Positions 25,191 to 62,961 of a stretch of 64,000 bases of DNA are shown here, piece after piece. The notes below the pieces were generated by a model. It made no database searches, had not been told where the DNA came from, and saw nothing but the letters and a program-made list of their open reading frames with translations. Source of the stretch: Squalus acanthias (lineage: Eukaryota); contig CM059427.1 of NCBI GenBank assembly GCA_030390025.1, positions 8,184,001 through 8,248,000 of the forward strand, read 5' to 3'. A program made the translations under genes and the position numbers. Within the stretch, counting starts at the first letter, position 1. Every line of letters starts with the position of its first letter.

Positions 25191-25317
25191 TAGGGGTGTA
25201 ACAACCATAAGTACGTCTCCTTTTATCAAAAGCTGTGGACTTTGGGAAAGGAAATCAGTGTTTGATCTTAGAAAACAGCACCTTGGGGTAAAGAATCTAA
25301 AATGCACTAGAAACATA

Positions 25318-27019: not shown

Positions 27020-27189
27020 TTCTTTGATGTAGGGAAAGATTTGAATAGATTTTGTCTGTGTTTAAATTGTGAATTCTGGGAGATTCTCTCACTGCTAACT
27101 TACCTGAGGAAGGAGCGAACCGCTCCGAAAGCTTGTAAAATTAAATAAATCTGTTGGACTATAACCTGGTGTTGTGCGACTTCTCATTT
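27020..27189 (+). mobile_element. Penelope-like 3' fragment (pLTR)
   Basis: Near-identical to 32087-32250; 11-bp TSD CTGAATATTCT (27009-27019, 27190-27200). Confidence 0.9.
27100..27138 (+). ncRNA. Minimal type I hammerhead ribozyme motif
   Basis: UUAC-CUGAGGA-A-GGAGCG/CGCUCC-GAAA-GCUU-GUAA. Confidence 0.75.
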
Positions 27190-29110
27190 CTGAATATTCT
27201 CCAATGACCTTTGCTGGAAAGTGGGCAGTTGTGAATGACTGATGAGGACAAGGTCAGGTTCAGCTATGATGCCTTCTATGGTCAAGTAATCTACCAGCAC
27301 TCACTGTCTTCAGTCACAATAAAGACTGGCTATTTTGGGTGAAATATTGGAAGGTAGCCAGCACCGATTAAACTGCGCCCATTTGAATCAGGGCCGGAAA
27401 AAAAATTGGGGAAAAAGTCAGCGATGTCAGCCACCAGAGGTGTATGACCCTACTTTAACAAATAGTTTGGTATTAAACATAAGAATGGACTGGAATTAAC
27501 TTGAGCCATGTATCAGCAGTAGGTAGTACTGGTACATTGTGCCCAGAAATAGAAAATAAATCACATCAATCTAATTAAAGAGTTTTGTGCTACACTTCCA
27601 TTCATCTCTCTTCAGGTCTCCACTCTGCAAAGGATGTTATGGGTCAGAAATGAGTTTTTGACTGCCACATTCCAATTCCCAGTTGACACTAATCCATATC
27701 ACAAAACATCACTAATTTCAACACTAATTGGTATTAATGCAGTCATGTGTAAAAGGGGCAAGCCCTGGGAACACACTGAGCTCATGTCAATTATCTGACT
27801 CAAGTCAGGATTAATAAGCACGCTGCTTGTGGTGAGGCCTGTATACTCGCAAAGAAAATGATGTCATAATAGCACCACCTTTGAAGCTGTTTGGCCCATC
27901 ACAATAATTTCCTCCTAATCAAGGAAAGCCAGTGGCGATGTACAAGGATAGTTCCAATAGTACCAGTAGTTCCTGATTTCAGAATTTGTTTAATTCTAAT
28001 TCAACTTTTTGATTCAGATTCAACTTCTTTGATTTTTTTCCTAATTGTCTGCCTGGCACTGATTCAAGTGGTGCAAAAGTTCAGTGGGTGTCAGCCACCC
28101 TCCAATGCAACATAGGAACGGCCAAATGGCCATTCGTTACATGTGAGTCTACACCATAAGTAGACTGCTTAATCATGGGACCATCACAACTAAGCCTTAT
28201 CTTGTCCTCATCCAACATTCACAGGTACACACTTTGCAGCACAGTTCACTGGAGAATACTCAGGACTCAACAGGAGTGGGGCTCCTTCTGACCTGAGGAC
28301 ATTAAGGCATAGGCACAACCACTGGGGGGGGGGGGGGGGAGCAGGGAGGAAGAGGAAGGCAGGGGTAAAAGGAGTGGGACATGTCCCTTCCAAATTTTGT
28401 TGCCATGGGCCGTGCGCCCCTCTCCTACTTCCAGTCTCAAAATTGCCCCCGCCCTCCCGCCCCGCCACCAACTGTTGACAACCAATTCTTTTGAAGCCAG
28501 TTGGAGCACCCCTCCTGCTGCCCTGCCTGAGATCAGTTAACTCAGCATATACTGGGAATCAAGCAGCATTTTTGATTTTAACAGTGCAATAATTCACTGA
28601 CTTACATTAACGGCGGTGAAATATTAAGGCTGTTATTCAGCACAATGAGAAATGTAGTGATACACAGACAGACAGGCTGGAGCGGCTTAATAGCCGAACC
28701 TACAAGACAAGCTGGAGACGAGACTAAACTATGGGCGCGAGAAGGCTGAGTTATTTCATAAAATATTAGCAGTGCACAAATATTTCAGCATACATTATTC
28801 ATAATATCGAGGCATCCAGCTGCAGTAAACTAAAACTTCCCAAAAAATTAGATGGGGATATTATTTTTTCTCATCGCGCCTAACTCCGAGTAAATAAAGA
28901 CTTTTTTTTGTGTTTTACTGTGTTCAGCCAAGTGGTGACATTTAATGTGGCCAAATTTTTTATTTGACAATTTGTGCAGAAGGGATTAAAAAAAACTTTG
29001 GAATTTCTAATTAAGTTCACCAAAAATTTTGGCCCAATTGGTTCCTTCCTTGTCCTGGTCTGGCTCAAAAATAGGGACAGCTGGAGGTAGTGCCTGCCTG
29101 TGACATACTT

Positions 29111-31430: not shown

Positions 31431-31679
31431 AATCCATTCTTTCCATAGACCATGAACTGATTGCCTCTGTCCAATCTATTCTATCTGCTGAGAGAGGTGA
31501 CTAATCATTGGCAAAACTTCCAAGATGCTCAAGTTCAGGGACAATCCAAAATAAATTTGGAGGATTGCAACCCATTATACTTCTTTAATTTACTACAGAG
31601 CACCCAAGCTTTGTGGCTATGCGTGTGTTGAAGAATGCCCAGACTGCCCTCAACAGGATTAAGCAATGTCATTATGAAC

Positions 31680-32250
31680 ATCGGCGAGACCATGCAGACA
31701 CTGAGACAACGTATGAACGGACACCGCGCAACAATCGCCAGGCAGGAGGGTTGCCTCCCAGTCGGGGAACACTTCAGCAGCCAGGGGCATTCAGCCTCGG
31801 ATATGCGGGTAAGCGTTCTCCAAGGCGGCCTTCGAGATACACGACAGCGCAAAATCATAGAGCAGAAACTGATAGCCAAGTTCCGCACTCATGAGGATGG
31901 CCTCAATCGCGATATCGGGTTCATGTCACGATACAGAACGTGACTTGACATCATGGCCGGTCTTCCCAGGTGTTTTTTTTTAAAAAGACTAACACAAGAA
32001 CCTACACAGATTGACAGGATATGCAGCCAGCAGGTGGTTTGACACGTTGGACCCCCTGGGACACATCTCATTGTCTTGGCTGTGCTCTTTGATGTAGGAA
32101 AGATTTGAATATATTTTGTCTGTGTTTAATTTGTGAATTCTGGGAGATTCTCTCACTGCTAACTTACCTGACGAAGGAGCGAACTGTTCCGAAAGCTTGT
32201 AAAATTAAATAAATCTGTTGGACTATAACCTGGTGTTGTGCGACTTCTCA
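31680..32250 (+). mobile_element. 5'-truncated Penelope-like element (GIY-YIG C-terminus + 3' UTR)
   Basis: IGET...LRQRMNGHR...PVGEHF...EQKLIAKFRTHEDGLNRD; 9-bp TSD ATTATGAAC (31671-31679, 32251-32259). Confidence 0.92.
32164..32202 (+). ncRNA. Minimal type I hammerhead ribozyme motif
   Basis: UUAC-CUGACGA-A-GGAGC/GUUCC-GAAA-GCUU-GUAA. Confidence 0.75.
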
Positions 32251-33349
32251 ATTATGAACTTGTAACAGAGATCTTACTAAAATGCACGTTTCTACAGTAC
32301 TGCTCTCTTTACTGCTGCAGCCCAACTTTCCCTGTTACTGCCTCGGGACCCCATTCCTGTCACATGGCCTACTTAGCAGGCCAATTACTTTCTGCCCAAT
32401 TACATTTTGAAACTTTGTTCTTGCAAAAAGAAGAATAATAATTGCAAAGTATATTCTGAAGTATTCATATCTTCATGCTTTGTTAATATTCATTATTCTA
32501 CATAATTTTGCTGCTATGTTATCCCCTAAAATTATCTTGTGAATTAAGAGAGCTTGTATTTTTCTCCACTCTACCCTAGGCTTTCAGGAAGTACAGTAGC
32601 CGTGCAACAAAGAAAATAGTGCAGGGAGGCCTACTGGCAAATCCCCACCCCTATGTCAGCTCTTTGAGATTTTACTCCCCTCTCCCCACCAGGAACCTCA
32701 GTAACCCACTACCCCACTGCATTTGAATGATGGTAGGGGTGGGTCTATGGGAATTGGCTGATTTCCTTGCAATAGTAAGAACAGAACAGGGCTAGTGGTA
32801 CTGATTCTGTCGGCAGTGATGGTAAGATCACTAATGCCAAAGAAAGAGGGCAAGACATGGCCCTGTCCACCTCTCCATTTCCTCTGTCTTCTAAACACTG
32901 GCTGCCATGATCTGTACTCATGCAGACAGTCATTTGCACAAAATTATTCCTAGGAATATGACATACCCCTCTCCCCCCACTACCACCACCAACAGGGGGA
33001 TGGGGGCAGATAATCTTCCTAATCTACCCATTAGGAAGTTTATGATAGCCAGCCATGGTGATTAGGCAACTGATGTTTCATTCGTCTCTGTGTGGCGCTT
33101 GTGGCCTTTGCTCTTTGTTTCCCTTTGATGGTAAGGCCAAAATTCAAAACTCATGGCCCAAGCAATCATGCCTACGAAAGCATGGGACAACATTTTATTA
33201 GACATAATTAAGTAGTAATTGAACAAAATTATTTTGCTTGGCTAAAGAAAACATGCAAGATTAGTTTTCACAGAGAAGAATTCCAAGGTTTGAAAAAAAA
33301 ATATTTCCGAATGCTGCTTAAAATAACTTGGGCGTCTCCTAAAAATATT

Positions 33350-33538: not shown

Positions 33539-34680
33539 ATCATCTATGTTGGTTTACATTAGGCTTCTGTATGTAAAATATACACAATAGGGCATATAAA
33601 CAACATTAGAAAACTATCATGACTTTCAACAGACATCAGCGCGTTTCTCTTCTATGATTTTTATAGTTTATAGAATATCTCATTTCAGCTAATGAGGGTG
33701 GGAATTTTCATCACATGCAAATTACGATTTTTCCAAGAAAGGTTTTGAAAGTACAGAAACAAAATCTCATATCATTTCTTGACTGGCACATGAGTCTAAA
33801 GAGATTCTGCTGGGATTCAATTATTTTTTTATAATGCTTTCTTGGGTATTATAAAACATCTACAAAAAAATACATATATGTCAGCACTTTTCTGAGGATG
33901 ATAATGAATTATTTTAAGGCAATTCTGGTGGAAGTCTTTGCTTTATTCAGAGTGAAAACTTTGAATTGAAGGGAGAGACTAAGGAATAAATAGCACAGTA
34001 AAGAAAGACAGGAAAGAAAACAACAGAGAAAAATAGAGAGCGGGTAATGGGTTTAATTAGCAAGATAGATTTGTTCCTTCAAGCTTGAAGAAATAAATGC
34101 ATCTTAAACCTTGCAGAACATGTTAGTATCATCCAGTAAATATATGGACCAAAGTTCTTTCAAGACCAAATAATTAAATAATACAGGAAGAAGCTAAGGA
34201 AGTATATCAGTGATAAATAAATTTCTCCATTTTGAAGAAGCTTAACTTTTTACAGTGCAGATCAATATTACTAACACACACCCCTGGGTTCTGGCTCAAT
34301 AATTGGAAAGAGGTCAGTGGTGTAAGTATACAAACCATGCGTTATTGATATTGATCTTTCCTGCAAAAAGTTAATTATCTTCAAAGCGGATGGAATGAGG
34401 AACAACAATTTTTCACAGGTGGACTTCTCCAGCCTGAATCTATATATAGAAATTATTTAATTATGAGATGTTGCAGTTTTAATAGAATTTCGCCACAAGT
34501 TTCTGCAGCCGCTTTGTTCTTCCAATCCGTTTGCAGCTTTCGTTTTCAGCATTTTAATGCAAGCCTCGAGTGTAGCGCAACATGGCAACCACATCGAAAG
34601 GTTATTGATTACTTCGATATACATGGCTTAGGGTGCTAAGTGTGTGCCTAATCTATGGCAATCTAACACTCTAATAATTG

Positions 34681-35290
34681 TGAGAAGTCGCACAACACCA
34701 GGTTATAGTCCAACAGTTTTATTTGAAATCACAAGCTTTCGGAGCTGCTGCTCCTTCGTCAGGTGAAGTGAAGGAATACGAATCGGCAACGCATATATAG
34801 TCAGAGAACAATGCCTGTGCAGAGTACAATGTCAGATGACTACAGTTAATCTTTCTGACTGCCTTTTATCACACCTCGGCAGAGAAACAATCAGGTCAGT
34901 CAGGAAGGCATTATATCAAAGACATAGCAAGATACAACTAAGACAATGAGGTGGGGTCACAGGGGGTCTAATGTGTCAAATGCAGTCTGTATGGAAAACC
35001 ATAAACTTTAAACTTTTTACTTTTTTTTACTGGAAATCACATCTGTGAACAAGCCAACGACGACTCGAGTCTGGATGACTCTACGTCATGTAGCGTGACA
35101 TGAACCCAAGATCCCGGTTGAGGCCGTCCTCGTGGGTGCGGAACTTGGCTATCAGTTTCTGCTCGATGATTTTGCGTTGTCGTGTGTCTCGAAGGCCGCC
35201 TTGGAGAACGCTTACCCGCAGATCCGAGGCTGAATGTCCTTGACTGCTGAAGTGTTCCCCGACTGGGAGGTAACAATCCTGCCTGGCGAT
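34681..35290 (-). mobile_element. 5'-truncated Penelope-like element
   Basis: GIY-YIG C-terminus nearly identical to the 31680 copy; 11-bp TSD TCTAATAATTG (34670-34680, 35291-35301). Confidence 0.92.
34729..34766 (-). ncRNA. Minimal type I hammerhead ribozyme motif
   Basis: UCAC-CUGACGA-A-GGAGC/GCUCC-GAAA-GCUU-GUGA. Confidence 0.78.
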
Positions 35291-38200
35291 TCTAATAATT
35301 GGTGGATATTTTGGTGGCCACAGTGTTTTCTGAAAATTTAGATACTGGGGGGCGGGGTGGGGAGGGGGGAAAGAGAGATGGGGATGATCGGTCATTGTTT
35401 AGCCTGGGTCCAACTTATCGATGATACTATTGCTGCGGGAAAGTGTGCACATTCTCTGGTGGTCTAGTTCTTCAAGGGTTACTTAGGTGTATGTGTTATC
35501 CTGGTGGCTCTCTGTGAGTTGCTGCATTTAGGTTCCCTAGGAAAACTTGCACAAAGGTCTAGGCTTTCAGGATTTATTTCAACCTAACAAGTATCTTAAA
35601 GTTCTGGGGGCGACAAGGTTAAAACTTTCAAAAGACCTGATTGCTGATCCTCATCTGAGTAGGATGCAACTACTAAAGTTGGAAGCTGTCATCAATCTAG
35701 TACTGCAACCTCAAATGGTGAATACTGGATACCTAGTTGATGTGGATCTAAGGAAAAATTGAAACTCTCTACATTTGATTTAAAGGCCACAGTGACCAGC
35801 AACCAGACAATAAAGAACAACTTTGGCTGATTACACAGATACCTCAGCAGTCCCATCTCTAATGTCAATAGAGGATGAGGGATCGGAAACAAAAATATGT
35901 AGAACAGTGACTATAGCAGGTCAGTGCTGAAGGGAACATTTCCAACAAAAAAAACTGGGGATCAGAAATGAGGATCTAGAGAAAAGTATGCCTGTTTTAA
36001 ATGGATTCACGGATGGGTAAGAGAGTAATGAGATAGAATCCTTACAATTACTTACCTTTGGACCTGGGTTTGAGGAAAGCTGCTGGCTGATTGAAATTGA
36101 CAAAATTATCATATCAAATTCCCCTTTACAACCATGCAGAAAAACCCATGTGTTATGTTCCCAGGTTTCTGCTTAGATGTTTCAAACTGTTGGGAAAATT
36201 CGAAACAAAACTTACAATAAGAAGCAGCATATCTGAATATATTTGGCCTGCTCAGCAGAAGTTCAGAACAAGTGGACATGTATGAAAAAAATCTCCTTGC
36301 CACCAATATTATTTATCCAGCCATGCTAGAAACAGTCTAAAAGAGAAGATATCGAATTCTTCTTGTCCCCAGGTCAGGTGTGCAAGGAGTTAGACATGGA
36401 AGTAAACAGCAACAACTTAAGACATCAGAACTTAGCTCCTCCTTAGAAAAGGATTGAAAGTGAAGTCAATAGAAATGGAATTTGATACCTCGATCACAAG
36501 TGTAGGCTGAGTTGTAACTTTAAATCTGTTGAGAAGGGTTGATCATGTTTGAAATTAAAACCCAATTGTTATGAAAAATGAGCTTTAAAGAGAAGAATTT
36601 CATGAGGTGAGATTTGCTGTTGTAAGCAATGATTGTTACTTAAGAACATAAGAAATAGGAGCAGGAGTCGGCCATTTGGCCCTTCGAGCCCGCTCTGCCA
36701 TTCAATAAGATCATGGCTGATGATCTACCTCATCTCCACTTTCCTGAACTATCCCCATATCCCTTGATTCCCTTAATATTCAAAAATCTATTGATCTCTG
36801 TCTTGAATATACTCAACGACTGAGTCGCCACAGCCCTCTGGGGTAGAGAATTCCAAAGATTCACCACCCTCTGAGTGAAGAAATTTCTCCTCATCTCAGT
36901 CCTAAATGGTTGACTCCTTATTCTGAGACTGTGACCCCTAGTTCTAGACTCCCCAGCCAGGGGAAACATCTACCCTGTAAGAATTTTGTATGTTTCAATG
37001 AGATCACCTCTCATTCTTCTAAACTCTAGAGAATATAGGCCTAGTCTACTCAATCTGTCCTCATAGGACAATCCTCCCATCCCAGGAACCAGTCTGGTGA
37101 ATCTTCGTTGCACTCCCTCTATGGCAAGTATATCCTTCCTTAGGTAAGGAGACCAAAACCGGACACAATACTCCAGGTGTGGTCTCACCAGGGCCCTATA
37201 TAATTGCAGTAAGACGTCTTTACTCTTATACTCAAATCCTCTTGTAATAAAAGCCAACATACAATTTGTTTTCCTAATTGCTTGCTGTACCTGCATGTTA
37301 ACTTTCAGTGATTCGTGTACAAGGACACCCAGGTCCCTCTGAACACCAACAATTCCCATTCTCTCACCGTTTAAAAAATACTCTGCTTTTCTATTTTTCC
37401 TACCAAAGTGGATAACTTCACTTTTCTCCACATTATATTCCATTTGCCATGTTCTTGCCCACTCACTTAGCCTGTCTATATTCCCTTGAAGCCTCCTTGC
37501 ATCCTCCTCACAACTTACATTCCCACCCAGCTTTGTATCATCAACAAACTTGGATATATTACATTTGGTCCCCTCCTCCAAATCACTGATGTAGATTGTG
37601 AATAGCTGAGGCCCAAGCACTGATCCTTGCGGTAGCCCACTAGTTACAGCCTGCCAACCTGAAAATTACCCATTTATTCCCACTCTCTGTTTTCTGTCCA
37701 TTAACCAATCCTCAATCCATGCTAGTATATTACCCCCAATCCCATGAGCCCTAATTTTGTTTAATAACCTCTTGTGTGGCACCTTATCGAATGCCTTCTG
37801 AAAATCCAAATACACCACATCCACTGGTTTCCCCTTATCTATTCTGCTAGTTACAACTCTAACAGATATGTCAAACAAAATCCGTGTTGACTCTGCCAAA
37901 TCCTATTATTATTTTCTAAGTGCCCTGTTACCACGTCCTTAATAATAGATTCTAGCATTTTCCCGACTACTGATGTCTTTAGTTCCCTGTTTTCTCTCTC
38001 CCTCCTTTATTAAATAGTGGGGTTACATTTGCTACCTTCCAATCTGCAAGAACCGTTCTAGAATCTATGAAATTTTGTAAAATGACAACCAATGCATCTA
38101 TTATTTCTATAGCCAACTCTTTCAAAACCCTAGGTTGTAGACCATCAGGTCCAGGGGATTTATCGGCTTTCAATCCCATTAATTTCTCCAGTACTATTTT

Positions 38201-39539: not shown

Positions 39540-40284
39540 GGGCTGAAACTTGATCCCGGGACGCGAGAGTACGCACTGCATACTCTCGCGTATTCCCACT
39601 CCAATTGCCGGTTTTCTGCATGCCCTGCGCATGCGCTGAAAACCGGCAATTGCTCTTCCGAAAAGGGGGCGGGGCCGGAGTGCATCGCGTGCGCGCTACA
39701 GGCTGCGCGCACGCTGTGCACTTCATGCTTTGGACGCGCAGGTAAGTACTGAAGATTTTGGAAATGTAAAAAGGAGGAGTAAGACCCGCTTTTAAGAAGG
39801 TAAGTAGTGAATTAAGTATTTTTTTGAATTTTTTTTTACAGGTATATCTTTTTTATAGACTTTAAAGACAGGTAAGTTTATTTTTATAACTTTTTAAAAG
39901 ATTTTAAATTTTTTCAAAAATTTAATTTTTTATTTAAAATGGTTAATTTAATTAACTATACTTATTTTATTAATGTGATGGTTTTTTTTAAAAATTTAAT
40001 TGAGGTTTAGCTGTTATTTTGGGGGGGTGTAAGATTCATAAGTCTCTCAGCCATGCTGTGAGACTTATGAATGGAAGATGGTGTGCTGCCATTGGCTCTA
40101 ACTGAGTCACGTGATCCCACAGCTCGCACGAATTAACTACGCCGCTGGGATACGCAAGCCCAGCACAGCTGATGTCTGGAACATCAATTTCGTGCGAGCT
40201 GGATCAGAAAAAGCATAAGCGAGGTGAGACATCGCGGGAAAGGCTTACCCCCGCGGGAACAGAGCGAGATCAATTTCTGGGCCC
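39540..40284. mobile_element. Harbinger-type MITE, family C, nested in CR1 (inverted relative to 23522)
   Basis: TIR-like gggctgaaacttgatc / gatcaatttctgggccc; CR1 continues on both sides. Confidence 0.8.
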
Positions 40285-43200: not shown

Positions 43201-43897
43201 CAGGTATGACCTTACGAAAGAGTTGTCATTGCGGTTTATAATCAAATGCCCTAGAGAAGCATCCCAGAAATTGGTTAGTCTCTTGACAACAGCCTCTTAT
43301 TGATTAGATACTTTCAATATATGTTCATGTGTGCATATTTCATGTTTCATATCACTATCCCGCATTAGTTTACAATTATCCACATCAAATCGCAGCTGCT
43401 ATTTTTAGCTCATTTATCTAATTTGGGGGAGAACTTGGGCACCTTAACGCCTGCAGTTAGCGCCTCCTGGGGGCACTACCGGCTTTGCGACCGGGCGCTG
43501 CGATACTACCGACGCCCGCGAAAAAGGCGGAGGTTTGCGGTGGCGGTAACCACTAGCGCCACAATCTCCTGCGGCCGGAGATCGTGACGTCATCAGGGTG
43601 CGCAGCGCCCCGGTAGCGCCCCGTTCTGAAATTCACTCTCGCCGCCTGCTTGAGCGCCTGCCGTTAGCAACGACAGGTAGAGGAGGCGGTATGCAGTTGG
43701 ATGAGCGCTGGAGGAAGTGCTATATAAAGGCGTCAACTTCCGGTTATTTTTGTCAGCACAGAATGCTGCCTTGCCAGTTTGGCACAAGCAGACAGGCATT
43801 TTGAGCGATTTCAGCGTTTTCAATTTGAAAGAATATTCTGCCTCAGAAAAATTTATCACTTTCATTTCGGTGAGATTTTAAACATTTCCATAATTTA

Positions 43898-45051
43898 ATG
43901 GGGGCTGTACTGGCACTGGACCTCGCCCTCCAGCGTCAACGTCGGAGGCAGCGGAGCCAGAGACAAACATTGGAAAACATGGCCAGAGAGAGGAGGGCCA
44001 ACAGGGCTCTCAACAGGAGGCCTTACCCTCCCAGGGTATTCCGGCAGCATTTCTCCTACATCAATCTCACTGAGGAGCAGTGTCTTAGAAGGCTCCGTTT
44101 CACCAAGGACGCGGTCGCAGAGCTCTGCCACCTCCTGCAGCCAGACCTCAAGCCTGACATCAGGAGCACCACGTCTCTCTCCGTGGCAGTCAAGGTCACC
44201 GTCGCCCTCAATTTCTACGCAAGTGGATCCTTCCAGTGTGAAACAGGAGACATATTTAACATATCGCAGTTCGCCGTCCATTGCTGCATCCGTGAGGTCA
44301 CAGGTGCTCTCTACAGAAGGAGAAGGGACTACATTTCCTTCCCTATCACCAGAGAGAAGCAGCGCGAGCATGCATGTGGTTTTGCCAGGATAGCGGGCTT
44401 CCCCATGGTGCAGGGTGCCATTGACAGCACCCACATCGCTTTGCGGGCACCTCATATCAATCCTGAGGTATTCTGTAACCGCAAAGGCTACCGCTCACTT
44501 AATGTGCAGTTGGTGTGCGACCACACACAGCGCATCTTCACCGTCAATGCCCGCTATCCTGGCAGCAGCCATTAGCCTCCATCCGGCACCAGACTCTGCC
44601 ACCTCTGTTCCAGCCATCACATCAAGCTAACGGATGGCTGCTGGGATACAAGGGCTGTCCGCTCTCCACCTGGCTCATGACTCTCCTCCGCAACACCAGC
44701 ACTCGTGCCCAGCACTCATACAATGAGAGCCAAACTGCCACCAGGAACATCATCGAGCAGACCATCGGGGTGCTCAAGCAACGGTTCCGCTGTCTTGACC
44801 ATTCAGGAGGAGCCCTCCAGTACTCGGCTGCGTGGGTGTACATTTTTGTCGTCATCTGCTGCATGCTGCACAACTTGGCCATATTGAGGGCACAGCCATT
44901 ACCACCAGGCATAGCCGCACCACCTCAGGAGGACGAGGACAAGGACAAGGAGGAACAGGAGCACGAACAACAGCAACGGAGGAGGCAGCCACTCCATTGG
45001 CCTTGTGGAAGGGCGGCCCGTGACCGCCTGATCAGACTGCGGTTCCAATGA
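43898..45051 (+). pseudogene. Harbinger DDE transposase, frameshift near 44575, second catalytic Asp lost (GYKGC)
   Basis: ORFs 43898..44575 (GAIDSTHI) and 44515..45051 (RNIIEQTIGVLKQRFRCL). Confidence 0.92.
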
Positions 45052-45216
45052 ATTCGAGGCCACTTCCCGATTGCTCATCCAGTCCCCATCAGTCCATCAA
45101 TTTCTCATTCAATACCACACCCCAAAGCTGAAATGAAACACAGCACCATTTCTGCAACATTCCAATAATAGATTTATCCACAAGCAATAACCACATATAT
45201 ACAACAACAATATTAA

Positions 45217-47100
45217 CTAATGACCCTTGTGCAAACCCTTAATTGCCCTCTTTACAGTGCCTTTTCCTAATCTAGTGCTCCTACGTAGTGTCTCTCCAGT
45301 GGCTGCAGCAGGGCTGGTGGAAGGCTGCTGAGTGTTGGTGCCAGAAACTACAGATGGCCTTGCAGGATGCCCTCGAGCAGCTCTGGGCCTGGAAGGCCCG
45401 GCTGTACACTGCGCCACCTCAGGATGGGCGGCGGCAGTCTGGGCTGGCTGGATGTCAGGCAGCGGCAAAGACAATGGTGGAGTGGCAGTGATGGGAGCAG
45501 AAATGCTGTCATCCTGAGAGAGGACAGCAGGTTCCTGCTCCATTGGCACACTGCCACTCCCCCGGGGCAGCACCTCAGCATCCCTAGCAATTTGCTGCAG
45601 CACAGATTGCTGGCCTGCTGCGACACTGTGAGATCCCCGGTGGACTGTGGTGGACCCAGCAACGATGGCAGCAGTCAGAGCTTTCGTGGCATCAATCTGA
45701 GACTGCATGAGAGCAGTCTGAGACTGGATAGCATCAACCATTGACTGCATTACAGCACTACAACGTTGCGTGGCTTCCGCCTGTGCTGCAATGGATGCTG
45801 CCATAACACGCAGCATGAGGTCTGGGTCCCCACGGTCGCTCAGGGAGTCCACCATCCTTTGCAGACTGCCAAGAATGGGCTCCATGGTATGCGCCGAGTT
45901 CTGTGCACTGTTTGAAGGCGGACTCCTCCACGCTCCTTACCATTGCCGACAGGCTCTCGGGCACCTTTGTCATTGCACCCATCATCTCGGTGTGCATGCC
46001 CATCACCCTTCTTGTGAATGCCTCCCCATCGAGTTCCTCATCTGAGTCCTGCACAGCAGAACTCGCGCGCGAACTCACCCTCCGGGGAGCTGGCTCCCGA
46101 GCTACCCTTTCCCCCTGGCCTTGCTGCTGCCCGCTCATGCCTGGTGCCTCACCCTGTACAGACCCCTCTACTAAACTTGCCTCTAAAGATCGCGTAGTGC
46201 CAGTATCTGAAGTCGTGCCTGCGGGTGAGAGATGCAGTGATGTGGTGCTTTGCTCCTCCTCATCTCCCGCCTCACTCTCACTGGGAGGCTCAGGGACAGG
46301 CTGGTCATCAGGTTGCTGATTCTCTGAAAGCATAAAGGCACAATACTCGCTTTAAGGTGAGGGCAGGGGGGCAGGAAGGGAGCAGGGAATGCAGACAGTA
46401 TAATGAGCTGGAAAGTGGGAAAGGCTTGTGGTGTGAGGGGGAAGTGGGATGAGAGAAGGAGAGGTGCTGAAGATACCGTTGTTACCCCCAAGGGGGTCGA
46501 CGTTGCCGAGGGCCTCGGTGCCCACCACCTGCTGCCCAATGAGGCGCAGCACTTGCTCCAGCAGGTTTGAAAGCTGCTAGAGCTGCGCATCACCCCCGCC
46601 TGTTCTCTGGTGCTCCCTCCTATTGTGGGCCATCTTGGCCTGCAAGAGAAATGAATGTGTATGAGTCAGAGTCCAGCTATGTGTTTGGTAGATATGCCTG
46701 TCGTAGTTGAATAGCTGAGATTGTAGGCAAGGCGTGAGATGTGGCTGTGAGTTTGAGTAGGTGCAGATGCTTGGCGGGTGAGTGGTGGGGGTGTGGTGGT
46801 TTGTGCAGTGTGTACAGACTGAGGTTCAGATGCTGGTATGTAGGACCTGTTGAAGCATGTACTCACCTTGACCACCCGAGTGAGGTCATTGAAATTCCTC
46901 CGGCACTGTGTCAGGCTGCGTTCCACCACACTACTGGCCGAGACCTCCTGGGCCACTTGCCTCCACATTGCCCTGAAGGCCTGGGGCAATGGCCTCTTTC
47001 CAGTGTCCGGGAACAGCACTGCTCTCCTTTGCTCTGCTCCCGCGACCAACGCCTCGTCCATGAAATGGCGAGCTCTCTCCCTGGGAGTGGGATCAGCCAT
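45217..47100 (-). pseudogene. Harbinger Myb/SANT-like DNA-binding protein; predicted exons 47100-46867, 46639-46477, 46323-45217
   Basis: RERARHF...W..VA..V...RS..QCRRNFNDL trihelix-like motif; GT/AG sites at the predicted boundaries; frameshifts in exons 2-3. Confidence 0.8.
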
Positions 47101-47799
47101 CACGATCAAGGGATTGAGTTGCTTGCAGGTCGCCCTCACAGCAAGCACGGCTGATAATGAGGATCTGCACAATGATGCAACCTCCCCTTTAAGAGCTGCA
47201 AGGAGCCAGTGTGAACTATCATCCCCGATTGCATTGCACCTAAAATTCATTATCGATCTGCTGGTAGCGCCCCTGTAGCACCCTAATGCGGTCATTAGCG
47301 CTTGATTTAGCGCTCCAGCTCTCTCCTGGAGCGCTAACAGCCAATTTAGGGGAACCTCAGATTCATTTGCATCTGGCGCTAATTTTTCATAAATTCAAAA
47401 TTTAGCGCCCCAAACAGGGCGATAATGAATTTCTCCCCCTTTATCTTTTGAATGTTATCAATCTCCCTTACATTGGTCACCTGACCATATAGCTTGGGGT
47501 CATTAGCAAATTTTATAATATTACCAGTTTACCCTTCACACTAATTAAAAACAGTGTAAACGTCAAAAGACCCACAATAAACCCCGGCAGGCTTCCCCTC
47601 ACGAACCCTCAGTCAGAGCCCTGTTCATCGATCGTCACCTTTTACTTTCCACTGCCAAGGTCATTTTCAACCCATTTAGCTAATTTGCCATTCATTCTAT
47701 GCATTTTTTTTCTTTCAAAGCCTCAGATGTGGAGCTTTGCGAAGCTCTTGCTGAAAATTCAATGATATCTATTGGATAGCCATCCTCTTAATAATCTTA

Positions 47800-48229
47800 T
47801 GAGATACGATAGCAAAATACTGCGGATGCTGGAAATCCGAAATAACAACAGAAAACGCTGGAAAAACTCAGCAGGCCAGGCAGCATCCTTGGAGAGAGAA
47901 AGAGAGTTAACGTTTCAGGTCGATGACCTTTCATCAGAACTGGGAAGAGCCGGAAATCAAATAGATTTAAGGCCAGGGTAAAGCTGGGAAAAGGGGGAGG
48001 GGATAAAGGAACAAAGGGGGAGATGAAGAGACATTAAGAGACATTAAGAGATATGCAAGGCTAGAGGTGGTGTTAATGTGACAGATTAAGGCTGAATGAA
48101 GTGTGAAATCCATTGGCAGAATGAAGGACAGCTGCCAGCTTCTAGGAGGAAAAAAAAAGGTGGGGGGGATAAATAAAAGGGTGGAAAAAATAAAATATAA
48201 ATGTGATTGGAGCTGAGGTTATGATCTAA
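47800..48229 (-). mobile_element. Penelope-like 3' fragment, second family
   Basis: Near-identical to 51009-51435; candidate TSD AATCTTA. Confidence 0.85.
47905..47941 (-). ncRNA. Minimal type I hammerhead ribozyme motif
   Basis: AGUU-CUGAUGA-A-AGGUC/GACCU-GAAA-CGUU-AACU. Confidence 0.75.
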
Positions 48230-51008
48230 AATCTTACTGCCTCATCTGAGAACTTCAGTAGGTTCTTGAGGTATTGGTCATTGTTTCTAAAATGATGCTG
48301 ACTCTCCTTTCTGACCCCCATGATTTTTAGATGAATATTGACAGCACCCTGTCTATGATTCTCTACTTCAAGCTTCGCTCCTTTTTTTTGAGTATTGCAA
48401 TTATTTGACTTATCTTTTAGCCCTATGTTACAGCAGTTTTATTTATGATGTACCTAAAAATATAAACCAAAGGACAAAACATTCAAATTGAACTTAAAGA
48501 GAAATTGGTGTGTTGGAGAAAAAAAATGCATTTGTTCTGCTTCAAACAAAAAGCCCTGGCCTGGAGTTGTCAGCTAAATGCCAGTTGGCCCTCTAATCAA
48601 GGAACCGGCTGAGAACACTGTCTAATTTATCACACCAATAGATTGAAACTCAGCTGCAAAATTGACTTGAAATTGGTTAATTCACAGAATTCTACAAAAT
48701 GGAAAAATGAGAGTTAAACAGACAGCAGCACACTGTAAGATGAATTTGATCCGGCTCGACAAATAATATCCAGGTTCTTAGCTGACTTCCTCAACTCTTT
48801 CTCTCCCAAGAGAGGTGTGGGAAAACTGGCACTAACACCTAGTAGTTACATTATAGGGTCTATCCAATGCTGTGATTGTATGGCATGGCTAAGGAAGTGC
48901 AAACGTTGTGAGAACGGTGATATGGTAGAATGCACTAAGTGGAGCTGTAGTTAGCTTTGTGAAGATCCTCTGTTATCTAGTGTTCTGTAATTGTAATTAT
49001 AGTTACCCTTGGCTGGTAATAGAAGACTTGATCCTAATTAGTGGGTTAGTTACTTCTTTGGAGTTTTATGCTTTATTTTCCTCCTGGATGTGATAAAAAA
49101 TTCTTTAATTGAGAATGAAGGGCCCAAGGTCAAGGCTACAACTTTAAGGCAGAAATGGTCATTAAAATAGGAAATGAAAAACAGGAAGTGCAAATACTCA
49201 ATGGTCTCTGGATCTCAGGTGCTACTATAGCAGGAAGCTCGTCAGGATTTGCCAGTCAATAAATCAATGAAGTTATTTTCTTAAAATCTCAATTGGTACT
49301 AACAGGTTTGTAAAAAGATGCATAAATGGGGTTGCCGTGGCACCTCAGGGCCTCGTTTCCATTCTGCTGATGAGCTGCACGTCCCGAACGGGCATCTTGC
49401 TGCAGCTTGCCGGCTCCAGGCGGTAACATCAGGCGGCATCTAACACCGGGCCTACTCACAGGGCAGGTCCGGGGGCTGGGGGAGGTGAATAAGGAGGGCG
49501 GAGCGGGCGGGTGGGGCGAGCCTGGGCCCAGAATGACCTGCAGTACTTGTGTCGAGTCTCCTGCTCCTCCTGGTTGCACAACAGCAGAAGACAACAACAT
49601 TTCTGGACTGTTTTTGGAGCAGCAGGAAGCAGTGCCTTTAAGGACCGCCGCTTGGGCCATTCACTGCCCAGTACGACTGGGCAGAGTGCACGCTCGTACC
49701 TTGAAATTGCATTGGGATCCTAGATACCTCATAGGACCCCGATTTGAATACTTTAATGAGGTTCTCGTCTGATTTAGCCGGGCGCCTGGGCCGTCCTTGT
49801 AAGGGTCCTGGGCAAAATGGTGGCAAGCGGGATCAGAGCTCGAATGGGGCGGTAAGTGCAGCAGTCCGCTGCTGCCCCATCCCCAACAAACCGAACTGAA
49901 GTAAAAATTGCTCCTCTTACATTGAAACCTGAATAAATCTGAATGTTCATCATAAGAGAATTTGCAATGGTGTACCCTATAAAAGAGGATTAATCTGAGG
50001 CACACGCCTGTTACTAGATACTGGGGAGATATGCTGGACTAACATGCCCTGGAAAAAACACGCTTCCTTATTCAAACTAAGGTACAGATTTTTAGAAAAT
50101 TATGAGCTGTGTCTGAGGAAAGAAATAATATTTGAGAGGAAACTAAACATTGCTGCAGCTAACAGATCCTTTTTTCCCAAACTACATTAAAACTGTAGTT
50201 TTTCAGACTGATTAATGTGTATCCTTTATCTCACTTAGGATGTGTATTATAACTATTAGCTATGTGCCATTTCTATGAAGATGATGATGTATGTAGTGTT
50301 CCAAGGATGTCAAAAAAATTATTCTTCTGATGTATAGGGATCTGCTAAAGAAGCCTACTTGTTAAATGTTCTTGTGAGCACCATCTGTTATGAAGACATT
50401 GGAATCTTGAGAGTCGATGATAGTTTCAGGGACAAAATAATCAGTTCTTTGCTGAGGGATATTTAAAGAATGGCCCTGAAATTCGCCTCTCCGGCTTACC
50501 ACGGGGGTAAGGATCGCGCGCGCACTTACCTACCGCGCCTGCCGTTGACCTCTGGGTCCACGGGAACTTCAGCTCCTGGGCCTGCTCCAAGTGCCGGCGT
50601 GTCCCAGGGGCGCAGTTAGTGCGATGCGTCCCCTGGGATCACGTGGGCCATGGAGAGCCAATGGCAGCAGACCATCTTTCATTCATAGATTTGACAGGAA
50701 GACCTGTCAAATCTGTGAATTGAAATCGGCCCCAAAAGAACAGCTAAACTTCAAAATAAATTTTAAAAAAATCACATTTATAAAATAACCGTAAGTTAAA
50801 TAAATTAACTACTTTAAACAAAAATTAAAATTTTTGAAAAAATTAAAATACTTTTTAACAGCGCTAAAAATAAACTTACCTTTCTTTAAAGTATCTAAAA
50901 AAGATAAACCTGTTGAAACATTTTTTAAATTATAATTAATTAACCACTTACCTTGTTGAAAACGGGTCCTGTGCCTCCTTTTTAAAAGCGCAGCCTCTTC
51001 AATACTTA

Positions 51009-52132
51009 TACGATAGCAAAATACTGCGGATGCTGGAAATCTGAAATAACAACAGAAAACGCTGGAAAAACTCAGCAGGCCAGGCAGCATCCGTGGAGAG
51101 AGAAAGAGAGTTAATGTTTCAGGTCGATGACCTTTCGTCAGAACTGTGAAGAGCCGGAAATCAAATAGATTTAAGGCCAGAGTAAAGCTGGGAAAAGGGG
51201 GAGGGGATAAAAGAACAAAGGGGGAGATGAAGAGACATTAAGAGACATTAAGAGATATGCAAGGCTAGAGGTGGTGTAAATGTAACAGATTAAGGCTGAA
51301 AGAAGTGTGAAATCCACTGGCAGAATGAAGGACAGCTGCCAGCTTCTAGGAGGAAAAAAAAGGTGGGGGGGGGCAAATAAAAGGGTGGAAAAAATAAAAT
51401 ATAAATGTGATTGGAGCTGAGGTTATGATCTAAAATTGTTGAACTCGATATTGAGTCCAGAGGGCTGTAGCGTGCCTAAACGAAAGATGAGGTGCTGTTC
51501 CTCGAGCTTACGCTGCGCTTCCGTGGAACAGTGTAATAGGCCGAGGACGGTGAGGTCAGAGTGGGAGTGAAGCGGTGAATTAAAGTGACAGGCCACCGGG
51601 CTCCCGGTGGCCTGTCACTTTAATTCACCGCTTCACTCCCACTCTGACCTCACCGTCCTCGGCCTATTACACTGTTCCACGGAAGCGCAGCGTAAGCTCG
51701 AGGAACAGCACCTCATCTTTCGTTTAGGCACGCTACAGCCCTCTGGACTCAATATCGAGTTCAACAATTTTAGATCATAACCTCAGCTCCAATCACATTT
51801 ATATTTTATTTTTTCCACCCTTTTATTTGCCCCCCCCACCTTTTTTTTCCTCCTAGAAGCTGGCAGCTGTCCTTCATTCTGCCAGTGGATTTCACACTTC
51901 TTTCAGCCTTAATCTGTCACATTTACACCACCTCTAGCCTTGCATATCTCTTAATGTCTCTTAATGTCTCTTCATCTCCCCCTTTGTTCTTTTATCCCCT
52001 CCCCCTTTTCCCAGCTTTACTCTGGCCTTAAATCTATTTGATTTCCGGCTCTTCACAGTTCTGACGAAAGGTCATCGACCTGAAACGTTAACTCTCTTTC
52101 TCTCTCCACGGATGCTGCCTGGCCTGCTGAGT
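51009..52132. mobile_element. Palindromic (fold-back) Penelope-like insertion
   Basis: Arms 51070-51600 and 51603-52132; 14-bp TSD CTCTTCAATACTTA (50995-51008, 52133-52146); encodes LPVACHFN...RKLEEQHLIFRLGTLQPSGLNIEF. Confidence 0.93.
52057..52093 (+). ncRNA. Minimal hammerhead motif (mirror copy on - strand at 51109-51145 has a stem III mutation)
   Basis: AGUU-CUGACGA-A-AGGUC/GACCU-GAAA-CGUU-AACU. Confidence 0.75.
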
Positions 52133-52648
52133 CTCTTCAATACTTACCCTCCCGTAGAAACCTGAAAAAAACCTAAGTTTGCTGCGTGCGCACAGCCTCT
52201 ACCACGCACGCGGTTCACCTAGGAACCGCCCCCTTCACCAGACCGGAAGTTCCGGTTTCCCGCGCATGCGCAGTGCATGCAGGAAACCGGCAATTCAGGA
52301 CGCCTTACGGGTGAGTACACAGCGCGTACTCACCCGGCAAGGGCCGAATTTCTGGCCCATTATGTAGGAAATGTATTTTTGAAAATATATTTCTTAAAAA
52401 ACTTAAATAGAAAATGACAAGGTAAAGGAAAAGACTTGAGAAAAAGAGAAAGTGGAATAAAGGTCATATTGCTCAACAAGTTCTGATAGGAGATGCATCA
52501 CCCACATACATACGTGTGTGTGTATATGTGCATGTGTGTTTGTATATTTACATGCGTATTTATATGTGTGTATGTATATACGTGTGTGCGCGCGTGTGTA
52601 TATCTATATATCTGTGTGTATTTGTATGTATATCTGTGTGTATATAAT

Positions 52649-58000: not shown

Positions 58001-58973
58001 CTATGCTCACTCTTTTCTAGAGGATCCTTTACTATGAGATCATTTATTAATTCTGTCTCATTACATAGTACCAGATCCAAGATAGCCTACTCCCTGGTTG
58101 GTTCCATTACATACTGTTCTAGGAAAACATCCCGGATGCACTCTATGAACTCCTCCTCCAGGCTACCATGGCCAATTTGATTTGTCCAATCAATATGGAG
58201 ATTAAAATCACCCATGATTATTACCGTACCTTTTTTACGGGCCTCCATTATTTGTTGATTTATACTCTGTCCAACAGCATTGCTACTGTTTGGAGTCTGT
58301 AGACTACACCCACCAGAGACTTTTTCCCCTTATTATTTTTATGCGACTTGTCAACTGCAAGGGCTTCCACTCCCTTAACGTGTAGCTGTTCTGCAACCAT
58401 AGGAAGATCATCAAGCATGTGTGTGCCAAATTCCCTGGCAGCTGCCATGTTTCTTTCGTCCTGCGCCAGTCCACCCTCCCTCAGCTCTTCGCTCCTCCAA
58501 ACAGACTTTCCAGCTGGCTGCTTGGAGACAAGGGCTATCCACTGAAGACGTGGCTCCTGACACCCTTGAGGAAGCCAAGTACTGAGGCTGAGGAGAGATA
58601 TAATGAAAGCCACATCTCCACCAGATGTGTCATAGAGCAGACAACAGTCATGCTGAAAATGCGCTTCAGATGCCTTGACAGATCTGGAGGAGCCCTTCAG
58701 TATGCACCAGCCAGAGTCTCCAGAATCGTCGTGGTCTGCTGCACCCTGCACAACATAGCGCAGCAGCGAGGATTAGCGCTGCATGAGGAGCAAGGCTCTG
58801 AGCGCACAGCCTTTTCAGAGGAGGAGGAGCAGGAGGAGGAAGAGGAGGAGCATCAGCTGGAAGATGAGGAGGAGCAGGAACTAGAGGAACCTGCGGTGCA
58901 GATGGCATCAGCGCTCAAGCGCATTGCTGGCCGGGAGGCCAGGGATGGCCTTATCATGGCCAGATTTACTTAA
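55036..58973 (+). pseudogene. Harbinger DDE transposase split by CR1 (55036-55733 and 58348-58973)
   Basis: [32 protein letters not shown] | KGFHSLNV, GDKGYPL, RCVIEQT, CCTLHN. Confidence 0.88.
55734..58342 (-). mobile_element. 5'-truncated CR1 LINE (partial endonuclease + RT)
   Basis: (TTCTTATG)n tail; ORFs 55940..57340 (FADD) and 57448..58080. Confidence 0.95.
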
Positions 58974-59269
58974 CCTTATGTAGTACATCCATATGGCTGC
59001 CACATGCTTCACCAGGTTGGCAACACCCCACAGCCACAACATTAAGTATCCCTACAATGACCAATCCATTCCTTTCACACTGATCACCATTGCTGGAGGT
59101 ACCGTTATGTCTCACCATTCACTCCAACTAAGTAAGCCACTTCCAATGGTGCACACAAATTTGTGCAAGACCAGAAAGTTTTGAAAAGAAAGAAATTTAT
59201 GGTTCACATTAAATAAACTGAAACTTCACATCAACATTGAATAAAACACCCAAGTGGCTACCCTTGTGT

Positions 59270-61153
59270 ATCTACTTGTATGGCATTTTTCTCTTACGCG
59301 TGCTTCTATGTAGTGCTACCCCTGTGACTTCAGCAGAGGTAGAGGCAGCTTCCTCACTTCCCTGCTGCGACTTCTAAGACATTTTTGGCGGTCGTCCTCT
59401 GGATTTTGAAGCCTGTGATGGCCCCGCCAAAGTCTGTTCTTCCTGCGACTGTGCAGGGGCAGACTCGGCCATCGCTGTCCGGGAAGACATCTGGGGCTCT
59501 GACTGAGGCGGTGGCAACAGGGGAGAAGTGTGAGCACTTTGAGAGGAGCCCCCACTTCCATGTCCCCTCTCACCATCATCCCTCTCATGGATCACCCGCA
59601 CTTCCCTGCTAGTAAGGAGCTGGAGAGCACCTTGCTGCACATCAGTGGGGCCATGAGGACCCACGTCTACACTGACATCCCTCGTAGAGTGGACGTCTAT
59701 GAGCCTCTGCCATCTGTTCTCCATAGAGACCATATGCTCCTGTGAGTGGCACATTAGCTGCTCCATGCAGGTGGCCATCCTATCCATGGAAAAACCTACA
59801 GTCGCCATCACCTGCGACACGATGGTGCTCATGTTGAAGATGGATTCCACCATTCTCTGAACATTTGCAGTCATCGCGTTCGCAAAAGCTGTCAGAGCCT
59901 CCTGCACTACTTCCTGCACCTCCAGGATCACCCTCTTTCTGGATGGCCCCCGAGGCTCAGCGTCTGCATGCAGCTGAGCAGAGCTGGGAGAGTCCTGCGC
60001 TCTCCCATGAGGACTCTCCACTGCGGTCCCTGTTTCCACCATCTGCTGTTGCTCGGTTGTGATTTGTGATACACCAGGTGACAACACTACTCTATCTCGC
60101 GAGGGACCCACTGAGGTGTGAGTATCTGCGCTGATGCTGGGTGCACTTCTGTCTGGTAATGGTGTGCCCTCAGAGGCTGGAGGCTCCTCTGAGGAGTCAT
60201 CTTCCTCTTCCTCCTGGACAGTGGGGGGGTGGGGGAGGGGGGCCTCTTGATGGACCTGTGGGAGAGTAAAGAGATGAGTTAGATATGTCATATGTAGATT
60301 GGGTACAGAAACCATTTTGCACATGATGACCATTCACTGGCTGCTGACATGAGCCCCCATATGAGTGAGTGATGTATGCCATGTAGCTGTATGATATGTA
60401 ATTCTGTCACCAGATTGCTGAGATGTTCCCCTCTCTCCGTCTCCCACCTCCAGCTGCTCGGCGACTCCCACCAGCTTTAAGGCAGCTTCCTCTGCTGTGG
60501 TCAGGGTGGCCATTGATGCCATTCCACCGCCAGTTCTCCCCCTCTCCCTCTTAGTTTAGGCTCTCTTTTCCTGCAAGGAGGGAAAGAAGCGAAGGTTGAG
60601 TGAGAGTGATGGAATGAGTGTAAGGAATGGATGAGTTTCCTCTGTAGAGGGTGACTATGATGGAGTGGGGTGGCAATTCCAAGTGGCCTCCTTGTGTGTT
60701 GTTAGTTGACATGATTGCATTAGGGTGAGGGTGAATCTGAGGGTGACTGGTAAGACGGGGATGTGATAATGTAGATAGAGAGAGAGGGATGGGTGGAGGT
60801 GCAAGGTAAATTGGTGTGAGTGATGATGTGCAGGAGAAGGGTTGGGAAAGCAGAGTGATGGGGATGTGATGAGAGGCAGTGCAGGATGAAGGTGAGTGTG
60901 GCTTTGGAATCACCTTCCCTGATCTAACAAGATGGTTGAAGCGTTTGCGGCAGTGCACCCAGGTCCTCCTGACGACATCCCTGCTGTTGACCTCCTCTGC
61001 TATTTGGAGCCAGACTCCTTTGCTCTGCTGGGGAGGTCTCTTCCGCCTATCAGCAAGGAAGAGGACCTCCCTGCGTGCTCTGACTCCCTCCACAAGCATA
61101 TGGAGGGAGTCATCGGAGAACCTGGGTGCAGCCCTGTGCCTCTGTGCAGTCAT
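59270..61153 (-). pseudogene. Harbinger Myb/SANT-like gene; predicted exons 61153-60914, 60570-60411, 60255-~59270
   Basis: RAAPRFSD...W.QIA..V...RTWVHCRKRFNHL; GT/AG sites at positions equivalent to the 45217-47100 gene. Confidence 0.78.
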
Positions 61154-61705
61154 CTCTGGTGGTGTGTACAGCAGTGAAGTAATGAAGTGCACTGCCTGCA
61201 AATTCCTCGATGAATCTTCAAATGCAATGTGGCCATGGCTCCTTTAACTATCCTGGCTGAAAACGCATCATCAATGACATCACCAGGCCTGCACCTTTTA
61301 ATTGGGCCGGGTAACGCGCAGGGCGGACTTAATAGGCCCCATTAACGTAAAGTCGTTCTGTGGAGCGGGATGGAGCCAGCAATAGACTTGTGAACCATCA
61401 TGGCAGCTGCCTGCACGGGACCCACCCAGGTAGGGAAAGTTCCAGACAATATTTGTGGTCAATGACCTTGCACCAGAACTGGAAAAAGTTAGAAATGTAA
61501 AAGGTTTTATGCACGTACATAGGCAGGGAAAGAGGGAAGGAGGAAAGAACAAAAAGGAGGTGTGATAGGGTGGAAGGCAGGAGAGATTAAATGACAAAAG
61601 GGATGATGGTGCAAGGCAAAAGGAGATGGTGATGTGACAAGTAAAGAAACAAAAGATGGGTCCAGAGGAGATGTAAATGGGAATAGCAGAATCATTACCA
61701 ACACC

Positions 61706-62010: not shown

Positions 62011-62961
62011 CCTGCTGTCCGTAAAAATGGGAACGGTGGTTATGATCTGAAATTGTTGAACTCAGTGTTGTGTCCAGAGGCTGTAAAGTGCCTCATCGAA
62101 AGATGAGGTGCTGTTCCTTGAGCTTACGGTGAGCTTCATTGGAACAATGTAGGAGACCGAGGATAAAGAGGTCAGAGTGGGAGTGGGGCGGTGAATTAAA
62201 ATGTAGAGGAGACCGCATCGTGAGCAATGAATATAGTATACTAATTTGAAAGAAGTACAAGTAAATCGCTGTTTCACCTGCAAGGAGTGTTTGGTGCCCT
62301 GGATGGTGGGAAGGGAGGAGGTGTGACGGCAAGTGTTGCATCTCCTGTTCTTGCATGGGAAGGTGCCGTGGGAAGGGGAGGGGGTGTTGTGGGTGATTGA
62401 GGAGTAGACCAGGGCGACCAAGAAGTTGGAGAGATCAAGAGGAACATAATGTGAGTGCCTTCCTGCCAATGCACTGTGATTGCACAAATATTATGATTAG
62501 GTTAGCCCGCTGCTGCAAGAGGCTTAGTCATAATAGCGGAAGCAGAAGTGAGAAAGGATGCCACTTGTCTCTTACATCCTCCTCAGAAAGATTGATGATA
62601 ATGTTATTGGTGCAAAATCAATGCTTTTGCAACAGAAAGTACAGAGAGTAAATGATAATGACATTCATATCAAAGAATCTCAGCTTCTAGGTCACAGTGA
62701 AGACAAATTTATAGTTGATTTAATTGTCCACTACTTAAGCATCGTTGGCTGAGCTAGGTTTTTTTTCCCCTGGAATCTATGTAGACTTACAATCAATTTC
62801 AAGCAATTCGATACTTTGTTAAATGAATGCCTACCTTACATGATGCCTGTTTGGAGCGGATGTGCTCGTTCGGATGGTACTACCCTAATTATAGTGCCTT
62901 TAAATTTAGGGTGATTCTTTAAGTGCCAATTGAAGATTAGATGATAGGATCTCTGTTTAAA

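Follow-up and report, generated by a model that had tools for sequence, protein, structure and literature searches.

Insertions in which a Penelope-like element (PLE) meets an inverted copy of itself are a known class. According to PMC3846280, inverted pLTRs are flanked by one TSD of 9-10 bp and a tail is present on one of the two; the same source describes palindromes at the inverted junction, gives the head-to-head orientation as the usual one, and offers self-priming as the explanation. An inverted, 5'-truncated copy with a one-sided tail is treated as a generic PLE feature in PMC8557442, and the Penelope element of Drosophila virilis carries inverted terminal repeats of variable size (PMC2377424). 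The layout was thus described in 2013 and in 2021 (PMC3846280, PMC8557442), and an earlier note on the DNA studied here was correct in calling inverted pLTR arrangements established. How the inverted repeats form and how the second strand is completed are called open in PMC8557442 and PMC11167929, and the available text of PMC9977147 and of bioRxiv 10.64898/2026.07.22.740005 adds nothing on the palindrome question.

Biochemical work on a purified PLE protein indicates that it cuts and extends both strands, starts RT at two neighbouring internal positions, the tail being the stretch between them, and is predicted to be a dimer (PMC11167929). In R2, 'snap-back' 5' junctions are described in which the 3' end of the cDNA primes itself before the second junction is made; R2 is site-specific for rDNA, has neither pLTR nor tail, and snaps back after one TPRT (PMC11371274). 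Small-hairpin inverted duplications are also reported at L1 sites (bioRxiv 10.1101/2024.12.14.628481). Twin priming of L1 is a further system for comparison. In this process, put forward by Ostertag and Kazazian in 2001, RT is reportedly primed by both target ends, by one at the end of the RNA and by the other at an internal position, and the cDNA ends are said to join by short complementarity, yielding an inversion with a TSD.

The window analysed here, a stretch of 64,000 nucleotides, contains at 51009-52132 an insert of 1,124 bp that is a near-perfect palindrome of about 1.1 kb (Table 1). The palindrome is real and as the earlier note described it: the estimates of arms of about 530 bp around a 2-nt spacer agree with the measured values, the approximately three differences between the arms are exactly three (a 1-nt indel in a G-run near 51373 and substitutions at 51284/51918 and 51115/52087), and the right arm, put at about 60 bp short, is exceeded by the left by 61 nt. 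The innermost 235 bp pairs without a mismatch; the runner-up among perfect inverted arms in the window (spacer up to 10) has 15 bp. Both arms are truncated within 2 nt of one common point. Five near-palindromes are listed for the window, and this is the only one made of a PLE; of about eight PLE fragments it alone is palindromic.

Table 1. Features of the palindromic insertion and of related sequences (columns: feature, positions in the window, strand, remarks)
Left arm	51070-51600	-	531 bp; 5'-truncated PLE 3' segment, sense running leftwards
Right arm, short and tail-less	51603-52132	+	530 bp; arms aligned outward from the centre
Centre	51596-51607		5-bp inverted repeat round the 2-nt spacer CT (51601-51602); putative snap-back or annealing site
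Left-arm-only extension (PLE 'tail')	51009-51069	-	61 nt; identical 3' end in the 47804-48232 copy
Endonuclease C-terminus and stop, left copy	51423-51600	-	GIY-YIG endonuclease ORF
Endonuclease C-terminus, right copy	51601-51780	+	59 aa and stop; spacer CT is the first two bases of a Leu codon
Right-arm hammerhead	52057-52093	+	core start 52061; minimal, dimer-type; pattern only; predicted cleavage after 52089
Left-arm hammerhead	51109-51145	-	core start 51141; minimal; G-to-A at a CpG (51115)
Left TSD copy	50995-51008	+	14 bp, identical to 52133-52146
Right TSD copy	52133-52146	+	14 bp, matches the left copy at 14/14
Interrupted host repeat	50470-52350		about 740 bp; imperfect terminal inverted repeats of about 15 bp, ends approximate; paralogues 39567-40155 and 23618-24261
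Sister copy	47804-48232	-	outgroup; a simple insertion truncated at its 5' side and tailed at the same 3' end, divergence about 3%
Older related PLE fragment	62027-62412	-	83% over 178 nt; keeps the CX4CxxC linker and GIY-YIG start

The locus is a clean further example of this known PLE insertion type, and neither its architecture nor the idea of self-priming is new; the earlier note gave self-priming as its own inference, whereas PMC3846280 had already proposed it at such junctions. Like Pen2/Pen2a of Adineta vaga, the generic PLE and Penelope of D. virilis, as far as the sources describe them, the insertion has a head-to-head 5'-truncated copy, one TSD, a one-sided tail and a palindrome at the junction. 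There are also several differences: the unit here is just the two inverted arms and lacks any tandem or ORF between them, its TSD has 14 bp against 8-10 bp in the rotifer cases, and its tail has 61 nt against the 30-40 reported. In contrast to the inverted-pLTR PLEs described, the arms here meet inside the endonuclease coding region with 2 nt between them, although the published figures may already show an equally pure palindrome.

Read from the centre outward, each arm opens with the C-terminus of a GIY-YIG endonuclease and its stop codon, followed by some 280 nt of UTR and then by a pLTR; thus, the arms are head-to-head. The 59-aa peptide carries the motif HFN...EE.HLIF.L, and the catalytic N-terminal part is truncated. 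Although Pfam gives no match with the peptide of either arm, the 59-aa sequence has 422 relatives (cluster representatives) at E<=1e-3, the best being a skate protein with 74% identity (E ~1e-18). Eight of the ten relatives looked up by organism come from skates, rays or the whale shark and one from a sea urchin, which makes a cartilaginous fish the likely origin of the DNA. Sixteen of 20 candidates proved to be longer relatives; in 8 of the 16 scanned a GIY-YIG domain is seen at E 1e-2 to 2e-4, below Pfam's cut-off, and the longer relatives also carry a C..C motif, in agreement with a C-terminal GIY-YIG endonuclease bearing the CCHH motif of PLEs. In two (P0087 and P0110) RVT_1 precedes GIY-YIG, the PLE order; the insertion itself, being 5'-truncated, has no RT. 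With its GIY-YIG C-terminus, UTR, hammerhead-bearing pLTR with an ORF start, and inverted pLTR, one-sided tail and TSD, the insertion is the 3' part of an EN+ PLE.

Its clade is probably Neptune-type, an assignment taken from the relatives that leaves Neptune and Nematis together. A CX2-5CxxC zinc-finger linker before a C-terminal GIY-YIG is given in PMC8557442 as the mark of Neptune/Nematis and not of Penelope/Poseidon, and the related fragment at 62 kb possesses it, as do 21 of the 29 homologues that extend far enough; the region is absent from the insertion itself. Judged on these relatives, the Penelope/Poseidon clade in the strict sense was rejected. Three ray or skate proteins (P0017, P0021 and P0036), annotated as neuromedin-U receptor 1, an ATP synthase subunit and mucin-2, end in the PLE endonuclease peptide; these ends are probably gene-model errors or exonised PLE fragments.

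The evidence for a single event comes from the target. The 14-bp TSD word does not occur again in the window, and in 5000 shuffles of both 71-nt end regions no shared word of at least 12 nt arose, the longest being 11. When the empty site was reconstructed in silico by taking out the insert and one TSD copy, it aligned across the junction to the paralogue at 39567-40155 (74% over 603 nt, E 9e-102), and in this uninterrupted paralogue the target word is present once, as a 12/14 match, near 39756 on the minus strand. No mirror symmetry is present between the flanks in the 200 nt outside each TSD. Because the paralogue runs through the junction with one target copy and the flanks show no such symmetry, this is a single real insertion, and the earlier claim of one 14-bp TSD around the whole holds. 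The interrupted repeat is likely a non-autonomous PIF/Harbinger-type element, a label taken from the DDE_Tnp_4 and Myb/SANT relics nearby. Several decayed PIF/Harbinger-like elements with DDE_Tnp_4 and Myb/SANT ORFs lie at 398-955, 43874-47394 and 58386-61243, and non-autonomous relatives are numerous; two of them form an inverted pair at 24834-25674 (77%).

The sister copy, itself bounded by a 7-bp TSD-like repeat (47793-47799 / 48230-48236), serves to place the differences between the arms. The right arm agrees with it at both substituted positions, which places the two changes in the left arm alone and makes an origin after insertion the simplest reading. Only 2 substitutions in 530 nt separate the arms, compared with about 10 in 366 to the sister copy (Poisson P 6e-5), which suggests that the arms share a template or source locus, although very young family members could also be this close. 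At the tailed end, the target duplications of both family insertions finish with CTTA, which hints at a preferred target (n=2). The relative at 62 kb is internally deleted across the fold point of the palindrome. Its deletion, at 62200-62215, joins the GIY-YIG start directly to the HFN motif, and at least two homologues (P0040 and P0045) show a like join, which suggests a recurrent or ancestral deletion derivative.

The earlier note credited each strand with one hammerhead motif and its antisense. Cores are indeed present on both strands, but the left motif is broken at 51115 and Rfam finds neither: at gathering thresholds it has no match in the window, and at E<=10 only three chance matches lie over a hammerhead. 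Given this negative result, what backs the hammerhead is its pattern. The right-arm motif is composed of a CUGAnGA core with an extra base, a 5-bp helix II, GAAA, a palindromic helix III (15.2-16.2 pair) and a 4-bp helix I. As far as the minimal type I hammerheads of metazoan PLEs are described in PMC4209133, they share with it the core, the extra base after position 9, the position in the pLTR and the palindromic 15.2-16.2 pair, which implies dimer activity; helix II here closes with A-U rather than the usual G-C, and the left copy is mutated. The change at 51115 abolishes the C-G pair of the palindromic helix III, and the self-duplex is computed at +1.4 kcal/mol, versus -5.5 in the right arm. 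Any self-cleavage, as a dimer or with the help of a protein, is putative, the computation having covered folding.

The left arm was said to have the complete 3' end. The 61-nt extension is there, but it is most likely the known optional PLE tail (a concept set out in PMC3846280, PMC8557442 and PMC11167929) rather than the completion of a 3' end. An ATG at 51090 in the pLTR opens a frame of 27 codons through the tail, and we infer that this is the true ORF start; in rotifer PLEs the first 22 codons are held by pLTR and tail (PMC3846280). The pLTR/tail peptide has no match among the 161 proteins fetched. Poseidon from Anolis carolinensis (PAc) resembles the present element in its pLTR hammerhead, in an ORF start in pLTR and tail, in two alternative 3' ends bounding the tail and in an AT-rich target (PMC11167929). 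It belongs to another clade, its start sites lie in an AC-rich stem-loop rather than in the U-rich predicted loop seen here, and palindromic products are not explained in the main text of that work. The short arm of the palindrome terminates in this predicted hairpin loop, within a structured 3' region. In the tail, on the minus strand, a pyrimidine tract ending in CAG (51040-51060) resembles a 3' splice site, and PLE introns are said in PMC4209133 to map to the pLTR region.

How the palindrome was made turns on the 2-nt spacer, which can be read against the coding frame. The centre reads G-L-P-V-A-C-H-F on the plus strand and G-S-P-V-A on the minus strand. Homologues were anchored at the conserved His, which was possible for 135 of 161 (in the other 26 the His was unaligned or the upstream part too short). 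One hundred have P-[VI] at the site; the two residues before it are G-L in 7, G-F in 24 and G-S in none, and P-G precedes in 25. At the spacer position itself these 100 have F (32), K (28), L (26) or S (8), and among the 34 homologues scoring at least 60 bits L occurs 18 times and S 4 times. These counts indicate that CT is probably the native sense sequence of the short right arm, with the reservation that the homologues are at most 74% identical and that the position varies.

The centre also forms a 12-bp imperfect palindrome with a 4-bp stem and a 4-nt loop (-2.4 kcal/mol). This small hairpin may be native, given that Gly is more frequent than any other residue two positions ahead of the Pro (35 of 135), but the mirror yields a Gly codon either way. 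The family's native DNA upstream of the centre was found neither in the 62-kb relative nor in a scan of non-eukaryotic genome contigs; the sole locus from 600 pattern matches, in a bacterial MAG, was rejected as chance (49% match, no DNA similarity, stop-interrupted frame). In a snap-back the loop lies on the first-strand cDNA, here the bottom strand primed from the right, tail-less junction, and the short-arm cDNA therefore probably carried it. A strand that starts at this short end and folds back cannot serve as template for the 61-nt tail, which would need a second priming or later trimming.

What is observed is one target, a 14-bp duplication, a common truncation point and a 61-nt tail on one arm. 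The explanation that we favour, with moderate confidence, is that both cut target ends primed RT and that pairing then occurred at the small central hairpin in the endonuclease coding region. The endonuclease would have nicked both strands 14 nt apart, as the TSD and the in-vitro work on another PLE suggest. The right-hand 3'-OH would have primed at an inner start site to give the short arm, and the left-hand 3'-OH at the outer site, the tail end, the template being either one RNA or a pair of RNAs bound by a dimer. About 530 nt in, the short-arm cDNA would have snapped back at the 12-bp imperfect palindrome or annealed there to the other cDNA; if snapped back, it would have served as template for a sense strand able to pair with the left cDNA, and repair would have sealed the product. 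The two left-arm substitutions would have come later, one of them the CpG decay that disabled the left hammerhead. The product, a young and dead insertion without RT, is probably unstable, and no function is implied.

Priming from both ends is consistent with the loop polarity on the short arm (the G-L reading), with the end of that arm in a predicted hairpin loop, and with the purified protein, a predicted dimer that cuts and extends both strands and has two RT starts (PMC11167929). Microhomology at the right junction is unexceptional, an identity of 6/14 being matched by 117 of 579 windows; allowing G-T wobble, however, 9/14 is reached by 30 of 579 (top 5%), which lends slight support to end-joining. 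Other points also weigh against priming from both ends. This is one locus, its tail has 61 nt rather than the published 30-40, none of the other copies in the window terminates at the short-arm site to mark it as a recurrent start, and the clade studied in vitro was another one (Poseidon). The spacer may have had no template, a single arm-to-arm crossover or an assembly phase error would flip it, and its polarity is uninformative if two cDNAs annealed to each other. A stretch of 36 nt at 17579-17614 matches the tail region only and starts almost at the short-arm boundary (83%); the match, weak at E 1e-4, is cut by a neighbouring repeat, and it could be a tail-only insertion such as priming from two ends predicts.

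The contrast with L1 twin priming drawn in the earlier note is sound insofar as inverted L1 segments are not duplicated and 530 nt is present twice here, which would need displacement, snap-back or two RNAs. It is overstated in that a second priming event (or trimming) is needed in this case too. Thus, the insertion lies outside the L1-type pattern of non-overlapping segments, and its priming step may nevertheless be like that of twin priming.

In the mechanism originally suggested, a single TPRT from the tail end makes the left arm, and the cDNA then folds onto itself, is extended for 530 nt along its own sequence and is attached by end-joining to the target's right end. This is the simplest route. 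Snap-back before 5' joining is known for insertions by R2 protein (PMC11371274), the sister copy shows that the tailed end is a normal 3' end, and the wobble complementarity at the right junction, though weak, would suit the final joining. The proposal nevertheless predicts an antisense loop, AG, on the top strand, where the homologue-like sense CT is found; it would thus have to invoke a subsequent flip, the loss of 2 nt at the centre or a spacer made without template, and the copying must run about 90% of the way and then halt, leaving a tail-like asymmetry. What survives is pairing at a short central palindrome; the folding strand was probably misassigned, the loop polarity being the opposite. 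As a whole we regard this route as rather unlikely.

Still less probable is a free hairpin intermediate, self-primed on antisense RNA or on unattached cDNA, its tail trimmed by the endonuclease, that is joined into a staggered cut. Self-priming on an antisense template was argued for head-to-head junctions in 2013 (PMC3846280), a one-sided tail is ascribed to EN-mediated resolution in PMC8557442, and the polarity fits, with the 5' (antisense) arm short and the 3' arm tailed. The tail, however, is explained in PMC11167929 by two target-primed RT starts on sense RNA, and neither antisense transcripts nor free DNA have any evidence here.

Two remaining explanations are very improbable. Fold-back (chimeric) reads are a known source of long palindromes, and an unrelated tandem pair of 3,278 bp, 100% identical, makes assembly error nearby possible; a fold-back read, however, mirrors everything and never returns to collinear flank, whereas the flanks here are unique, bear a TSD and together restore a repeat of which an unbroken paralogue exists. 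One of the differences between the arms is a CpG transition, where the right arm equals the sister copy, and the earlier dismissal of such reads stands. Palindrome arms can be homogenised by gene conversion and very young family copies may be near-identical anyway, but two independent back-to-back insertions, or a later rearrangement (inverted duplication or arm-to-arm conversion), run counter to the single outer TSD with none internal, the shared truncation point and the lack of an inverted flank duplication.

Returning to priming from both target ends, a broader proposal, which we advance tentatively and consider doubtful, is that PLE head-to-head palindromes and the one-sided tail come from a single 'twin-prime then snap-back' reaction by a dimeric RT-endonuclease. 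Both target strands would be primed at two RT start sites, and the inner cDNA would prime itself at small native hairpins. If so, the spacer polarity of each palindrome records the folding strand, and thousands of insertions in cartilaginous fishes could test the PLE second-strand mechanism. Among titles and abstract openings of the openly licensed literature, none was found that combines twin priming and snap-back in a PLE model or that exploits loop polarity. Loop polarity and the end position of the short arm offer a cheap genome-wide means of separating single snap-back, priming from two ends and free hairpins.

The locus is a dead retroelement fragment inside another repeat, and its value is that of an unusually clean specimen: the TSD is exact, a paralogue represents the empty site, another copy of the family serves as outgroup, and the coding frame makes the 2-nt loop readable. 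It indicates that PLEs can deposit near-perfect palindromes of kilobase size, potential sources of hairpin RNA if transcribed. The expectation that any read-through transcript would form long dsRNA holds thermodynamically, with 528 predicted pairs in a duplex of about 528 bp in a folding computation, and in such a transcript the long duplex would enclose both hammerheads. Nothing points to transcription, and none of the 75 open stretches scanned matched a host-gene Pfam family, a scan that would miss short exons and non-coding transcripts; the matches in 7 of the 75 were all to transposon domains. Long palindromes with a short spacer and high identity are described as prone to breakage (PMC7999016), in line with a young age of this insertion.

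Other repeats occupy much of the window. A second PLE family (20419-20467, 27021-27194, 31671-32255 and 34674-35291) has its own minimal hammerhead with a palindromic helix III and a common 3' end. A TSD of 11 bp flanks the copy at 27 kb, remnants of the endonuclease survive in two copies, and none is palindromic. At 6392-17000 there is a tandem triplication of a 3,278-bp unit with a 29-bp minisatellite. Copies 1 and 2 are 100% identical, and copy 3, with 7 differences in 2,885 nt, is broken by a CR1-like LINE 3' fragment of about 766 bp (15833-16598) that is absent from the other two; the triplication is either a very recent duplication or an assembly error. Finally, a near-intact CR1-type LINE lies at 2293-5828 on the minus strand, with an open stretch of 1,045 aa that contains endonuclease and RT domains and an ORF1-like frame upstream.
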